From the NCBI GenBank assembly GCA_035549455.1, contig DASZQW010000032.1:46960-110959 (forward strand): DNA of 64,000 bases, given 5' to 3'. The notes beneath the pieces were generated by a model that ran no database searches, had not been told where the DNA came from, and saw nothing but the letters and a program-made list of their open reading frames with translations. Origin of the DNA: Rhizomicrobium sp. GTDB lineage: Bacteria; Pseudomonadota; Alphaproteobacteria; Micropepsales; Micropepsaceae. The position numbers were made by a program, and so were the translations under genes. Positions 7,501 through 53,595 of this stretch are shown one piece after another (within the stretch, counting starts at the first letter, position 1; every line of letters begins with the position of its first letter).

Positions 7501-7581
7501 ATGAAGAAGCTTTTCGTCAAGACCTATGGTTGCCAGATGAACGCCTCCGCGCGCCACAGGCGCGCATTGGAAAGGCCATGA
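7501..7581 (+). other. 26-codon upstream ORF carrying a duplicate of miaB codons 1-15, with its stop overlapping the miaB start
   Basis: Reads [26 protein letters not shown]; TGA 7579-7581 overlaps ATG 7578. Confidence 0.85.
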
Positions 7582-8891
7582 AAAAACTTTTTGTGAAGAC
7601 CTATGGCTGCCAGATGAACGCCTATGATTCCGCCAAGATGGCGGATCTGCTGGCGCCGCTGGGCTATGCCGCGACGGACGCACCCGAAGGCGCCGACATG
7701 GTGATCCTCAACACCTGCCACATCCGCGAAAAGGCGGCGGAAAAAGTCTATTCCGAGCTGGGGCGGCTGAAACGGCTCAAGCGCGGAAAGACCGGTATGC
7801 TGATCGCGGTGGCGGGCTGCGTCGCCCAGGCCGAGGGTGAGGAGATCATCGCCCGCGCCCCGGTGGTGGACATGGTGGTGGGGCCGCAATCCTTTCACCG
7901 CCTGCCCGAAATGATCGCCCGCGCCGCCCGCGCCGAAGGCCGCAGCATCGAAACCGATTTTCCCGCCCTGGAGAAATTCGATTCCCTTCCCGCGCCGCAA
8001 GGCAGCGCGGTATCCGCTTTCCTGACGGTGCAGGAAGGCTGCGACAAATTCTGTACTTTCTGCGTGGTGCCTTATACGCGCGGCGCCGAACATTCGCGCC
8101 CGCCCCAGGCGATCCTGCGCGAAGCGGCGCAGCTGGTCGAAAAAGGCGCGCGCGAGATCGTGCTGCTGGGCCAGAACGTCAACGCCTATGACGGTCCTTC
8201 TTCTGATGGCGACGGCTGGAGCCTGGCAAAATTGTGCGCGGCGCTGGCAAAGATCGATGGCCTGGAACGCATCCGCTACACCACCAGCCATCCGCGTGAC
8301 ATGGCGGACGACCTGATCGCCGCCCATCGCGACAATCCAAAACTGATGCCCTATCTGCATCTGCCGGTGCAGTCTGGATCGGACACGGTGCTGGAAGCGA
8401 TGAACCGCCAGCACAGGGCCGATGACTATCGCCGCCTGGTGGACCGCATCCGCGCCAGCCGCCCCGATATCGCCCTGACCTCGGACTTCATTGTCGGCTT
8501 CCCCGGCGAAAGCGATGCCGATTTCGAGGCGACGCTGGGGCTGGTGCGCGACATCGGCTACGCCACCGCCTTCAGCTTCAAATACTCCCGGCGCCCCGGC
8601 ACGCCCGCTTCCACCTTGCGCAAGCAGATTCCCGAAGATGTCAAGGCGGCGCGACTGGCGGCGCTGCAGACGCTGCTATGGTCGCAGCAATATGGCTTTG
8701 ACGACTCCCAGATCGGCAAGGTGCTCGCGGTGCTGTTCGAGAAGCCCGCCCGCGACGCCGGCCAGCTGATGGGCCGCACGCCCTATCTCCAGCCGGTGCA
8801 TGTGACGGCCGACGCGGCGCGGATCGGCAGCATCGCCAATGTGAGGATCGCGCGCCGCACCGCCAACAGTCTGCACGGAGTCCTGGTTTGA
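7578..8891 (+). CDS. miaB: tRNA-2-methylthio-N6-dimethylallyladenosine synthase
   Basis: [16 protein letters not shown], radical SAM motif [22 protein letters not shown]-terminus. Confidence 0.96.
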
Positions 8892-29828: not shown

Positions 29829-29830
29829 CC

Positions 29831-29952
29831 GCTTTATTTGTCGCTCCGGCTTCGCCGACGCTTTAATTTGTCGCTCCGGCTTCGCCGACGCTTTTATTTG
29901 TCGCTCCGGCTTCGCCGACGCTTTAATTTGTCGCTCCGGCTTCGCCGACGCT
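29831..29952. repeat. Four tandem ~30-bp hairpin units (GCTTTAATTTGTCGCTCCGGCTTCGCCGAC)
   Basis: Period 30 at 29831/29860/29890/29920; no unique spacers; internal CGGC-TTC-GCCG stem. Confidence 0.95.
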
Positions 29953-51605: not shown

Positions 51606-51892
51606 CCCAAGCTGCCGCCGCCCGGGCCTTTCATGCCCAAGGCCGGAAAAGCGGCGAATACCGCCGTGAATCCGGCCACCATATATAAGGAGGCTGCCGG
51701 CCGCCCCGGGCGCCCGTCCGCGCAAGCTGTCGCTGCCACGCAGCGCAGCGCGGAACGATGGCGACGACCTGCAATTTCGGACCGGCACGGCGCCACACCC
51801 GGCGGCGCGCCGGTCGCTGGTGATCTGGGCCCGAGTTCCGATAGACAGGCGCAGGCCCGCTTCCTATTTTGCCTTTCACGGATTGGGATTTG

Positions 51893-52051
51893 ATGATGGC
51901 GCGTACCGCTTTGCTTTGCATCCTGGATGGTTGGGGCCCCGGCGGCGGATGCCGCCCATCGAACCCCGGCGGCGGATGCCGCCCATCGAACACCGGCGGC
52001 GGATGCCGCCCATTGATTAAGGCCAACCCCTGCAGCGAGGCGCCGGCATGA
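51893..52051 (+). other. Upstream ORF carrying a duplicate of gpmI codons 1-14 plus a repeat-encoded tail, with its stop overlapping the gpmI start
   Basis: Reads MMARTALLCILDGWG-(PGGGCRPSN)x~3-...APA*; TGA 52049-52051 overlaps ATG 52048. Confidence 0.85.
51937..52017. repeat. Three tandem 27-bp REP-like hairpin units (CCCCGGCGGCGGATGCCGCCCATCGAA)
   Basis: Units at 51937/51964/51991, each with a GGCGGC-GGAT-GCCGCC stem-loop. Confidence 0.95.
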
Positions 52052-53595
52052 CCCGTACGGCGCTTCTTTGCATCCTGGATGGTTGGGGTTGGCGTCCGGG
52101 TGATGATCCTGACAACGCCATCGCCGCCGCCACGACGCCCAACTACACGCGCCTGCTCGCGGACTGCCCCCATGCCCTGCTGGCGACCTCGGGCAATGCG
52201 GTCGGCCTGCCCAAGGGACAGATGGGCAATTCCGAAGTGGGGCACATGAATATCGGCGCCGGCCGGGTGGTGGCCCAGGACCTGCCGCGCATCGACATGG
52301 CAATCGAGGATGGCAGCCTGGCGCGCCGCCCGGTGCTGCTGGCGCTCATCGATAACGTGAAGACAAACAAGCGCGCCGTGCATGTGATGGGCCTGATGTC
52401 GCCCGGCGGGGTTCATTCCCACCAGGATCATATCGCCGCCCTGGTGAAAATCCTCAGCAGCGCCGGCGTGCCGGTGTTCGTCCATGCCTTCCTTGATGGC
52501 CGCGACACCCCACCCAAAAGCGCGCGCGGCTATGTCGAGAAATTCCTGTCCGACATTGCCGGGCTGGCCGGGGTGCGGCTCGCCACATGCTCGGGCCGCT
52601 ATTACGCCATGGACCGCGACAAGCGCTGGGACCGGGTGGAGAAGTGCTATGCCGCGATGGCCGAGGCCTCGGGTCGCCGCTTTGACGACGCCTTTGCCGC
52701 CCTCGAGTCCAGCTATGCCGAGGATGTCACCGACGAGTTCGTTGTGCCCTGCGCCCTGGGCGACTATGCGGGGATCGAGGATGGCGACGCGCTGCTGTTC
52801 GCCAATTTCCGCGCCGACCGGGCGCGCGAGATTTGCACCGCGCTTTTGGACAAGTCCTTTGCGGGCTTTGTGCGCCCGCGCGCCGTCACCTTCGGGGCGG
52901 CAGCGGGCCTGACGGAATATTCCGATGCGCTGAGGCCCTTGATGACGGCGATCTTCCCGCCGGAAGATGTGCGCGAGACCCTGGGCGAAGTGATCGCGCA
53001 GGCCCATAAAAAGCAGCTGCGCATCGCCGAGACCGAGAAATACGCCCATGTCACCTTCTTCCTGAATGGCGGACGCGAGCAGGTGTTCGAGGGCGAGGAC
53101 CGCATCCTGGTGCCAAGCCCCAAAGTGGCGACCTATGACCAGCAGCCGGAAATGAGCGCCTATCAGGTGACCGACAAACTGGAAGCGGCGATCCTGTCGG
53201 AAAAATACGACCTCATCGTCTGCAACTATGCCAATCCCGACATGGTGGGCCATACCGGGGTGATGGCGGCGGCGGTCAAGGCGGTCGACGTCATCGATGA
53301 ATGTCTGGGGCGGCTGGTGACGGCGCTGAAGAAAGTGGACGGCGTCATGCTGCTCACTGCCGATCACGGTAATATCGAGATGATGAAGGACCCCAAGACC
53401 CACGAGCCCTATACCGCCCACACCATGCTGGATGTGCCGATCATCGCCTATGGCGCGCCCAAGGGCGTGAGCCTGGAAAATGGCCGGCTGGCCGATGTCG
53501 CGCCCACGCTGCTGGCGCTGATGGGCCTGGCAAAGCCGGACCTGATGACCGGCCATTCGCTGCTGGCCCAGAGCCAAAAAAGACAGGGCGCGTGA
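52048..53595 (+). CDS. gpmI: 2,3-bisphosphoglycerate-independent phosphoglycerate mutase
   Basis: ILDGWG, GQMGNSEVGH.NIGAGR, GGVHSH, GRYYAMDRD.RW, AETEKYAHVTFF, NYANPDMVGHTG and TADHGN motifs. Confidence 0.97.
   Translation: MTRTALLCILDGWGWRPGDDPDNAIAAATTPNYTRLLADCPHALLATSGNAVGLPKGQMGNSEVGHMNIGAGRVVAQDLPRIDMAIEDGSLARRPVLLALIDNVKTNKRAVHVMGLMSPGGVHSHQDHIAALVKILSSAGVPVFVHAFLDGRDTPPKSARGYVEKFLSDIAGLAGVRLATCSGRYYAMDRDKRWDRVEKCYAAMAEASGRRFDDAFAALESSYAEDVTDEFVVPCALGDYAGIEDGDALLFANFRADRAREICTALLDKSFAGFVRPRAVTFGAAAGLTEYSDALRPLMTAIFPPEDVRETLGEVIAQAHKKQLRIAETEKYAHVTFFLNGGREQVFEGEDRILVPSPKVATYDQQPEMSAYQVTDKLEAAILSEKYDLIVCNYANPDMVGHTGVMAAAVKAVDVIDECLGRLVTALKKVDGVMLLTADHGNIEMMKDPKTHEPYTAHTMLDVPIIAYGAPKGVSLENGRLADVAPTLLALMGLAKPDLMTGHSLLAQSQKRQGA

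Follow-up and report, generated by a model that had tools for sequence, protein, structure and literature searches.

Why does a conserved housekeeping gene begin twice? The gene gpmI (2,3-bisphosphoglycerate-independent phosphoglycerate mutase, 515 aa, intact) is found at 52048..53595 of the window, i.e., the whole stretch of 64,000 nt that was analysed; all the features located below are on its + strand. This gene is preceded by a second copy of its own first codons, and an array of hairpins lies between the two copies. The reading slightly favoured as a whole is that of an "insert plus spare gene end" made by recombination or repair and rendered harmless through translational coupling. A prior description of such a module was looked for in the searchable literature and none was found; general background only was obtained, i.e., homology-facilitated illegitimate recombination (HFIR), gene displacement, MITE plus start codon and MIRU coupling.

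Anatomy of the duplicated gpmI start

A promoter scan locates a native promoter-like box (TAGACA-17-TATTTT) at 51842..51870. The box GATAGACAGG..CTTCCTATTTTGCC upstream of gpmI is kept in relatives, insert-bearing and insert-free alike, thus copy 1 is at the native position. This copy is an orphan gpmI start (codons 1-14, MARTALLCILDGWG, 51896..51936), cut after TGGGG. The second, functional copy (52048..52088) is continuous with gpmI. The two copies form a 41-nt direct repeat, 85% identical (35/41) and with a spacing of 152 nt. The sequence-only reading had claimed a duplicated start with an identical core of 23 nt and upstream differences that are synonymous except in codon 2, which is what is found: the six differences are all in the first 18 nt, four are synonymous and two fall in codon 2 (GCG -> ACC, Ala -> Thr), while the final 23 nt, i.e., the break side, are identical. 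The base changes are G/A, G/C, C/G, T/G, T/C and G/T.

The orphan is followed by three tandem units of 27 nt (51937..52017; 9 codons per unit), each containing the hairpin GGCGGC-GGAT-GCCGCC. The units at 51937-51963, 51964-51990 and 51991-52017 score 100%, 100% and 89%, respectively. A tail of 30 nt separates the array from the second start copy. The spacer is 111 nt in length and has no ORF of its own. The segment of 152 nt lying between gpmI codons 14 and 15 is made of the hairpin array, the 30-nt tail and the copy of codons 1-14. Upstream of this segment remain the native promoter, the native ribosome site and the first 14 gpmI codons, i.e., the stub. The reading frame of the stub (uORF, 51896..52051, 51 codons) runs through the orphan, the array and the tail. 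It is open from ATG 51896 (or ATG 51893) to TGA 52049-52051, which overlaps ATG 52048 (ATGA). The three-unit array, the open stub and the overlapping stop are as first described.

The tail contains the stretch a' (GCCAACCCC, 52022..52030), the reverse complement of the gene sequence spanning the break. In the minimum-energy fold it pairs with the stretch a (GGGGTTGGC, 52085..52093), which lies across the break-equivalent position TGGGG|TTGGC and is the 3' arm of a long-range stem. On the basis of sequence and fold, a Shine-Dalgarno-like GAGG (52037..52040), 8 nt 5' of the functional start, is located within the predicted long-range stem-loop. A simple tandem duplication was rejected, since the spacer shows no relation to the sequence natively found upstream of the gene.

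The gpmI module in relatives

A comparison of gpmI loci in relatives had been proposed. Among about 105 gpmI loci examined, it reveals a homologous module at the same gpmI codon in six other species or metagenome contigs, as well as empty sites. All 7 homologous modules have the same break, and only 3 of the ca. 105 genome loci are carriers. The gpmI module is old and is present in 7 species or metagenome contigs. The carriers are not monophyletic and the sister of each is an empty-site genome. The stub frame has no interruption in 7/7 carriers, and its stop forms (A/G)TGA with the new start. The number of hairpin units is 1 or 3; the stem is invariant and the loop is variable.

In 7/7 carriers 9-13 nt of the tail form pairs with the gene sequence spanning the break: GCCAACCCC pairs with GGGGTTGGC in 4 carriers and GCCAGCCCC with GGGGCTGGC in 3, i.e., an A:T to G:C covariation. 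The long-range stem is part of the minimum-energy fold in 7/7. These pairings were read directly and each of the seven module sequences was folded singly. The predicted stem has one covarying pair, with perhaps two or three independent switches.

Other modules of the genome

The genome is a MAG of 44 contigs (98% complete, 2.6% contamination). A scan for close direct repeats, akin to the self-similarity scan that had been suggested, leads to at least 17 gene ends with the same architecture, i.e., an insert plus a spare gene end. They comprise 5' ends, 3' ends (about half) and one tRNA (tRNA-His); gpmI, miaB, dnaQ, kdsB, cca, trxA, ftsK and gyrB are among them. The sequence-only reading had proposed a class of two gene starts. 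Such a class is real and recurrent, but it is confined neither to starts nor to two loci. Gene callers will choose wrong starts or spurious small ORFs at these modules, which also account for gene-like fragments that stand beside intact genes without decay of the pseudogene type.

The parallel drawn with miaB holds. This sister module (7501..7622) is made of an orphan (7501-7545), a spacer of 32 nt and a functional start at 7578. Between the copies 7501-7545 and 7578-7622 there are 5 differences, none of which changes an amino acid, and the stub ends in ATGA. The spacer contains the hairpin GCGCGCC-ACA-GGCGCGC and GGAAAGG. A complementary tail was looked for at the miaB module and was not found. 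This module is private to the genome (0/28 relatives). The dnaQ, cca and zapA modules are also private, and their copies are 98-100% identical; the homology begins exactly at the ATG, with flanks that are unrelated right up to it. Given these nearly identical copies, the "recoded restart" that had been postulated needs no foreign origin.

The duplicated gene end measures 13 to 98 nt, the cargo 31 to 111 nt. The spacers are mostly locus-specific, unique sequences. When the differences between copies are pooled over the modules, 42 synonymous and 10 non-synonymous codons are counted on the explicit in-frame sequences of the copies (p = 3e-7). The orphans thus do not seem to decay neutrally. In the modules compared with relatives, they occupy the native context. 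The breaks adjoin highly conserved motifs (LDGWG, GCQMN, DTETTG, PGKP, GGxVR), and the hairpin foot is located 0-4 nt from the break of the orphan in nearly all modules. Beside the spare end, the break site recurs as an inverted copy at gpmI, dnaQ, cca, C32:148407 (15-18 nt), C32:120208, ftsK and C13:89859, even in modules private to the genome. At dnaQ and cca this inverted stretch is outside the predicted minimum-energy fold; a role as RNA thus does not hold for all modules, and the stretch could be a mere footprint.

Repeat families and enzyme genes

The 27-mer hairpin of gpmI is found elsewhere in the 2.52-Mb genome at C21:7907 and C24:13843 only. The former is another duplicated gene end with the same geometry as gpmI and the latter lies inside a gene. 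The array had been called REP-like: its units are indeed hairpin palindromes, but with three loci genome-wide the hypothesis of a high-copy, dispersed REP was rejected.

A separate family of repeats, GGAGCGTCGGC..GCGACCAAAA, has 24 copies in the genome. It occurs in the spacers of kdsB, zapA, cca, C32:148407, gyrB, C32:120208, C22:539 and C13:89859. The orientation of the element relative to the gene body is constant (6/6). In these spacers the left copy abuts one end of the element and the right copy begins 17-26 nt beyond the other, conserved end. The tail of 17-26 nt that follows the element contains 7-18 nt complementary to the break site. Flank duplications are present at 4-5 of the 24 copies and absent at 19-20.

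It had been suggested that the 27-mer be searched for near a RAYT/HUH or other nuclease gene; the genome contains no RAYT/HUH gene. A Y1/RAYT gene (PF01797) gave no match in this 98%-complete genome, while control genomes matched. A search of the genome for a reverse transcriptase (PF00078) gave no match, and one for an IS110 DEDD recombinase gave only a fragment of 23.7 bits, below threshold. Six tyrosine recombinase genes (PF00589) are present in the genome, none of them near any module. A Ku gene is present.

Three further candidates were rejected: (i) SINE-like retrotransposition, considered for the A-rich element end and the variable duplications, as there is no reverse transcriptase in the genome and the flanks of other family members are not the source of the unique tails; (ii) hairpin opening of the P-nucleotide type, as the inverted stretch copies the inner and not the outer end of the duplicated segment; (iii) a diversity-generating retroelement, as PF00078 is missing from the genome and the differences, mostly synonymous, are not confined to template adenines.

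Probable translational coupling

The stub is open through the spacer in 6/6 independent 5' modules (joint chance 0.08). Of the three frames, all six use the one with a stop at +1 to +10 from the new start, with a chance of (1/3)^6; in the alternative, out-of-frame option the stop would come 26-175 nt later. Models of coupling by RNA unfolding and by reinitiation are established (PMC12548453). In the sequences and the predicted folds, the upstream ORF ends on the start and the start is within a structure.

These features are consistent with the following course. Transcription would proceed from the native promoter, and ribosomes would initiate at the native ATG and read the stub, hairpins and tail included. 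They would halt at the TGA of the ATGA, so that gpmI proper would be made by termination-reinitiation. The new Shine-Dalgarno site and the start codon would be held within the long-range stem (52022-52030/52085-52093). This stem would have to be melted by the ribosome of the stub, tying the output of gpmI to the native initiation signals.

The conserved open frame and the stop on the start codon argue for coupling rather than sensing, and we infer that the gpmI module is a neutralised insertion and not a sensor. Taken together, the anatomy of the module and the coupling are considered probable from sequence and fold. Conserved housekeeping genes would then tolerate small insertions in their coding ends, each with a spare end and, at 5' ends, with a hand-over of the ribosome. 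The modules also provide a natural set of stub-gene pairs, with putative coupling and a conserved predicted stem, on which RNA unfolding can be tested against reinitiation.

Origin of the modules and alternative explanations

Taken separately, an origin by replication or repair is proposed tentatively. An accident at hairpin-forming repeats would be favoured over a target duplication made by a transposase. Indeed, the variable length of the duplications (13-98 nt), the few flank duplications of the repeat family and the lack of Y1/RAYT, reverse transcriptase and IS110 genes, with Ku present, suggest that the origin is not transposase-like. Two versions may be considered: (i) template switching; (ii) a one-sided recombination with a donor allele in which a repeat occupies the gene boundary, involving either end joining or the ligation of a 5' flap left uncut. 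The event would have left its footprint beside the spare end, in the form of the short inverted copy of the break site. The module would then spread by ordinary homologous recombination, the conserved orphan and the gene body serving as arms, and might be lost without a scar through recombination or slippage between the two copies. The orphan would be kept gene-like by exchange with empty alleles and by conversion between the copies, which would explain both the synonymous-only differences and the identical core. Nevertheless, two observations fit less well. A homology that starts exactly at the ATG (dnaQ, cca, zapA) is not predicted by a random repair accident; it would follow from a dedicated mechanism or from a boundary-repeat allele such as that of G018 (see below). 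Moreover, the constant orientation of the element and the 17-26-nt offset fit a mechanism encoded by the element better than an accident.

The modules could alternatively be due to a non-autonomous mobile element, i.e., a hairpin scaffold with a target-complementary tail, mobilized by an enzyme acting in trans which also copies the gene end, so that the insertion rescues itself. Several facts point to such an element: one family (GGAGCGTCGGC..GCGACCAAAA) fills many spacers in constant orientation; the left copy abuts the element and the right copy is 17-26 nt past its other end; the tail has 7-18 nt complementary to the break site; the gpmI hairpin recurs with the same geometry at the C21 module; the homology starts exactly at the ATG or the stop codon in nearly identical modules; and the breaks are beside highly conserved motifs. 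However, no candidate enzyme (Y1/RAYT, reverse transcriptase, IS110) was found in the genome and the six tyrosine recombinase genes are not adjacent to the modules. In addition, most spacers are unique, 19-20 of the 24 family copies have no flank duplication, the duplications are of unequal length (13-98 nt) and a complementary tail is missing at miaB. This explanation is regarded as unlikely. The sequence-only reading had spoken of an undescribed class of start-replacing insertion elements. The searchable literature agrees with "undescribed", but a mobile element that replaces starts is left unproven by locus-specific spacers, variable duplications and the lack of an enzyme. It is rather doubtful that there exists an undescribed, retargetable mechanism in which a hairpin scaffold that carries or acquires a 7-18-nt target-complementary tail lands inside conserved gene or tRNA ends, the spare copy of the gene end being made in the same event and permitting the occupation of essential genes. 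If a dedicated mechanism were true, it would be a new route for tiny elements into essential genes, and the complementary tail would suggest that the target is chosen by base pairing.

The module could also be the scar of a one-sided (homology-facilitated illegitimate) recombination, the functional end and the spacer coming from a related species and the orphan being the resident end. Experiments document this type of recombination, which has also been put forward to explain small variable segments (PMC2884548). It would agree with differences between copies that are almost all synonymous, with a homology that stops at the coding boundary, where orthologous flanks cease to align, and with orphans in their native context. 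Moreover, the orphan core of G015 is closer to the gene of a sister species (G018) than to its own functional copy. In G018 itself, a family element sits precisely in the gap that separates the coaE stop from the dnaQ ATG, and nothing is duplicated; a donor allele of this kind is what the scar model needs. On the contrary, the gpmI copies of G000 and L032 share lineage-specific states (RTA for RPA; ATC, GGT; TGT ATT), thus the two copies are each other's closest relatives. At dnaQ, cca and zapA, copies that are 98-100% identical stand between flanks without any relation up to the ATG. The model gives no reason for an inverted copy of the break site, and a donor allele for miaB, dnaQ or cca was looked for in 27-29 relatives and was not found. 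A foreign origin of the functional end is judged improbable.

A leader-peptide control had been offered as another possibility; it would be a leader peptide or attenuator purpose-built for the control of gpmI and miaB and mimicking the protein N-terminus. The stub is putatively translated from the native start, its frame and the position of its stop are kept in the 7 gpmI carriers, and the predicted stem encloses the real start. However, there is no Rfam match (E <= 1), the region 51893-52048 has no terminator-like site, and there is no T-tract after the gpmI hairpins. Beyond the break, the stub peptide is the hairpin read in frame, with a variable number of units (1 or 3). Untranslated 3' ends and a tRNA show this architecture as well, and most close relatives have no module. 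Such a control is very unlikely, and the module is best read as a neutralised insertion.

That two strain alleles were joined in tandem by the assembly is scarcely credible, although the source is a 44-contig MAG with 2.6% contamination: independent assemblies from other studies and species have the same break, a homologous spacer and diverged sequence, the separate contigs L141 and L147 carry an independent three-unit array at gpmI, and the objection that the case is an artefact or limited to two loci is contradicted by the six other carriers and the at least 17 modules.

Comparison with known systems

In MIRUs (mycobacterial interspersed repetitive units), as described in PMC12548453, a short ORF runs through the repeat, there is a 4-nt overlap of its stop with the start downstream, and expression is barely disturbed. 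The gpmI module is similar in having small tandem units at a gene start and an ORF that ends on the downstream start (ATGA, 52048-52051). To our knowledge, MIRUs are located between the genes of operons and neither cut a gene nor bring a second copy of its first codons. On the contrary, the gpmI array lies beside a duplicated gene start of 41 nt, the two kinds of repeat are unrelated in sequence and 3' ends are also hit.

REP/BIME and REPIN-RAYT sequences are likewise short palindromes, rich in GC, that lie at gene ends and may be arrayed in tandem; the 24-copy family is of this type. Nevertheless, there is no RAYT in this genome, the gpmI hairpin is at three loci only and REPs are extragenic, without flanking gene-end duplications of 13-98 nt.

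Integrative elements with an att site in the end of a tRNA or protein gene, and their remnants devoid of integrase (CIMEs), share with the modules the direct repeats made from a gene end, a core that is identical where it meets the junction (23 nt at gpmI), a replacement end that restores the gene intact, as is the case for gpmI, and an orphan by the native flank. They differ by their cargo (31-111 nt here), by the integrase, which is not found near the modules, by the many targets per genome seen here and by the nearly identical copies of the private modules. A transposon that duplicates its target site would show one set length of flank duplication at all its copies, unlike the modules.

HFIR and flap ligation resemble the modules by one homologous side and an illegitimate joint at GC-rich hairpin DNA. 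Flap-ligation duplications (FEN1/rad27-type) are duplications of tens of bases. We know of no case in which either process yields a recurrent, ordered module (hairpin, inverted footprint and coupled restart) or strikes many gene ends in one genome.

The palindromic elements of Rickettsia, like other intragenic repeats read in frame, are small palindromic repeats tolerated within coding regions. The gpmI insert differs from them: it is not part of the protein, and the gene restarts behind it with a duplicated start. Some of the repeats described here are, like the Rickettsia elements, in frame inside genes, i.e., the copies at C11:80072, C13:89859 and C24:13843.

Duplicated gene start at gpmI and miaB

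The gpmI gene (52048-53595, + strand, ORF of 515 aa) has its first 41 nt repeated 152 nt upstream, at 51896-51936, with 85% identity. The 6 differences between this first copy and the functional start (52048-52088) all lie within the first 18 nt, the 23 nt adjoining the break being identical; four of them are synonymous and the other two alter codon 2 (Ala -> Thr). Three 27-nt units (51937-52017, + strand), each with GGCGGC-GGAT-GCCGCC, are located between the copies and are followed by a 30-nt tail containing a GAGG ribosome site. From the ATG at 51896, the frame of the cut-off first copy (orphan or stub) has 51 open codons and ends at a TGA (52049-52051) within ATGA. The duplicated start, the 3 x 27-bp hairpin array, the open stub and the ATGA overlap announced by the sequence-only reading are thus all found in the sequence. 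The same layout, also claimed for miaB, is confirmed there: a 32-nt spacer with a hairpin separates two copies (7501-7545 vs. 7578-7622) that differ at five positions, each of them synonymous, and ATGA again closes the stub.

A promoter-like box (TAGACA-17-TATTTT, 51842-51870, + strand) is found directly upstream of copy 1 and is kept 5' of gpmI in relatives, insert-bearing or not. Because of this conservation, copy 1 is taken as retaining its native context; the added segment is 51937-52088. The box GATAGACAGG..CTTCCTATTTT is conserved genus-wide even with a different upstream neighbour gene, flgI being this neighbour in the genome studied here and, in most relatives, a gene for a PKHD-type hydroxylase. 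The leader-peptide control proposed as an alternative gains no support, the module region having neither an Rfam match nor a terminator.

Distribution of the gpmI module

The genome containing the window is metagenome-assembled (44 contigs, 2.52 Mb, 64% GC; the window lies on contig C32) and its closest named relatives are uncultured Alphaproteobacteria near Micropepsaceae. Comparison of the gpmI loci in relatives yielded both empty sites and homologous modules. An assembly artefact is rejected, since independent assemblies (genome G015 and the MAG behind locus L032) hold a homologous module at the same codon. Four further metagenome sequence types carry it (L141/L147, L142, L146 and L149). 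The module is old and patchily spread: only 3 of ~105 alphaproteobacterial gpmI loci from genomes contain it, and in the GpmI tree these three carriers form no clade, each being sister, with strong support, to an empty-site genome. The module has thus been lost several times or transferred between species; loss needs only slippage or recombination between the copies and leaves the gene intact. In another relative (G012:C1:405791-407312, loci L028-L030), gpmI is matched by seven pieces that differ in frame and contain internal stops; the gene has decayed or its assembly is poor (the genome is 52% complete).

Both gpmI copies share lineage-specific states: RTA (in place of RPA), ATC and GGT in the present genome, TGT and ATT in L032. 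At present, the gpmI module would be a neutralised insertion that leaves the native initiation signals in control of gpmI. The orphan would be kept gene-like by conversion between copies and by homologous exchange with empty alleles, processes that would also yield the identical core and the states common to both copies.

Conserved features and probable translational coupling

In the seven gpmI modules, the break always follows TGGGG, the hairpin stem GGCGGC/GCCGCC is invariant and the loop is variable (GGAT, GACA, GAGA, GGAC). The modules have 1 or 3 hairpin units, the three-unit arrays of the present genome and of L141 being of separate origin. The stub frame is open in all seven and its stop always overlaps the new start, as ATGA or GTGA. 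The tail contains GCCARCCCC, i.e., the reverse complement of the GGGGYTGGC that crosses the break-equivalent position within the uninterrupted copy. These two stretches covary (A with T in four carriers, G with C in three), the variable gene position being a third codon position (glycine). When the sequences are folded singly, a 9-13-bp helix between tail and gene belongs to the minimum-energy structure of all seven (pair probability 0.46-1.0). The new ribosome site and start codon, together with the first 12-14 codons, lie within the region closed by this predicted helix, whose 5' arm is traversed by the stub frame.

The stub is open through the spacer in each of the six independent 5' modules of the genome (joint chance of 0.08 with shuffled spacers). 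Moreover, of the three possible frames, all six use the only one in which the first stop falls at +1 to +10 relative to the new start; the second out-of-frame option would stop 26-175 nt downstream and the in-frame option would lead to a fusion protein. The chance of this pattern is (1/3)^6, and it points to selected translational coupling at 5' modules. The working model, supported by the frame pattern and by the conserved features of the seven gpmI modules, is that: (i) the native start would drive translation of the stub; (ii) the stub ribosome would open the structure around the new start, then stop on it; (iii) the gene would be translated via reinitiation or unmasking. Both are established forms of coupling (PMC12548453). 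MIRUs have been proposed to use the same trick at start codons (PMC12548453).

Modules in the whole genome

A scan of the genome for close direct repeats, followed by inspection, gave at least 17 modules, this count being a lower bound; gpmI and miaB are thus far from being the only cases. The architecture, an insert plus a spare gene end, recurs at both kinds of gene end. At 5' ends are found gpmI, miaB, dnaQ (three tandem copies), kdsB, cca, a zapA-like gene and the gene at C3:49655. At 3' ends are found trxA (93 nt), ftsK, gyrB (three copies) and the genes at C32:148407, C19:29282, C21:7825, C41:126958, C32:120208 and C22:539. A 13-nt in-frame case (C13:89859) and the 5' part of the tRNA-His gene (C44:19719) complete the list.

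In every module the orphan retains its native flank, and in nearly all of them a stable hairpin starts 0-4 nt from its broken end. The duplicated length ranges from 13 to 98 nt. In protein-gene modules, the start or stop codon usually marks the precise limit of copy homology; homology extends 42-51 nt into the non-coding flank in three modules with nearly identical copies (tRNA-His, C3:49655 and C32:120208). Copy differences comprise 42 synonymous vs. 10 non-synonymous codons (p = 3e-7 against a generous 46% null), thus orphans do not decay as free pseudogene fragments would, and this holds for untranslated 3' ends as well. Those at miaB, dnaQ and cca are private modules of this genome, none of 28, 29 and 27 relatives, respectively, carrying them.

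The tRNA-His module (C44:19719-19907) has a 45-nt double-hairpin spacer between two 72-nt copies (71/72 identical), each made up of the first 21 nt of the gene and the 51 nt preceding it; this layout thus also affects an RNA gene and takes in non-coding flank. The threefold dnaQ start (C32:12071-12350, outside the window) includes a 109-nt unit of start and spacer present twice in tandem; the two units differ at 4 of 12 nt beside the break and at only 2 of ~97 nt elsewhere, i.e., a local hypervariable patch adjoins the hairpin.

Spacers and inverted footprint

Most spacers are unique sequences. The gpmI hairpin is also found at C21:7907, in a 3' module and again adjoining the broken end of the orphan, and within a gene at C24:13843. 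Eight other modules contain members of one family, GGAGCGTCGGC..hairpin..GCGACCAAAA, of which 24 copies have both ends.

Module tails often hold the reverse complement of the gene sequence across the break: 15-18 nt at C32:148407, 9 nt at dnaQ and cca, 9-13 nt at gpmI, 12 of 13 nt at C13:89859, 7 nt at C32:120208 and in the C21 module, and 6 nt at ftsK. The best inverted match crosses the break in 8 of 16 modules vs. ~3 expected from uniform position. This stretch occurs even in private, nearly identical modules, thus it was made at or near their birth. As it lies outside the predicted RNA fold at dnaQ and cca, its general meaning is more likely that of a DNA footprint; at gpmI, the folds suggest that its pairing with the gene has been retained in addition.

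Origin of the modules

The tentatively favoured origin is an event of replication or repair at repeats that form hairpins, because duplicated lengths are variable, spacers are mostly unique, no candidate enzyme is found in the genome and most family copies are without duplications (no flank duplication at 19-20 of 24). It could proceed by template switching or, where recombination involves an allele bearing a repeat at the gene boundary, by end joining or ligation of an uncut flap. Such an element exists in a relative (G018, L161 1470-1500), where a 27-nt minimal family element, without duplication, occupies precisely the interval from the coaE stop to the dnaQ ATG; both genes abut directly in other relatives. 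A Ku gene is clearly present in the genome.

That a dedicated mechanism, guided by base pairing, made the modules is considered unlikely, although several regularities speak for it and against the repair reading: in modules the orientation of the family is fixed (the GGAGCG end always adjoins the orphan), the right-hand gene copy always begins at a set offset of 17-26 nt past the AAAA end, through a tail not conserved within the family, the tail is complementary to the break site and junctions fall exactly at the coding boundary. As to enzymes, the genome has no Y1/RAYT gene, one of the nuclease genes near which the sequence-only reading proposed to look for the 27-mer; there is no reverse transcriptase either, IS110 is represented only by a sub-threshold fragment, and none of the six tyrosine recombinases is near a module. 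The «undescribed class» of the sequence-only reading is partly supported: the architecture is recurrent and a full-text literature search found no published description of it, but it is not confined to starts, since 3' ends and a tRNA gene are also affected, and the genome has no candidate enzyme for an insertion element.

Other occurrences of the repeats

In the window, four tandem 30-nt units (CGCTTTAATTTGTCGCTCCGGCTTCGCCGA, 29830-29952) represent the dispersed family in minimal form and on the opposite strand; comparable 36-nt arrays are found at C39:107799, C29:17053 and C31:56327. In-frame copies of the family or of the gpmI hairpin occur inside a DDGW-repeat protein (C13:89859-89909, minus-strand view), a rlmN-like gene (C11:80072) and a flavin-reductase-like gene (C24:13843), the first being flanked by a 13-nt duplication and an inverted copy of it. 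At C13:29551-29800, a family element plus ~71 nt of unique sequence is tandemly repeated at least twice, which may result from unequal exchange between modules.
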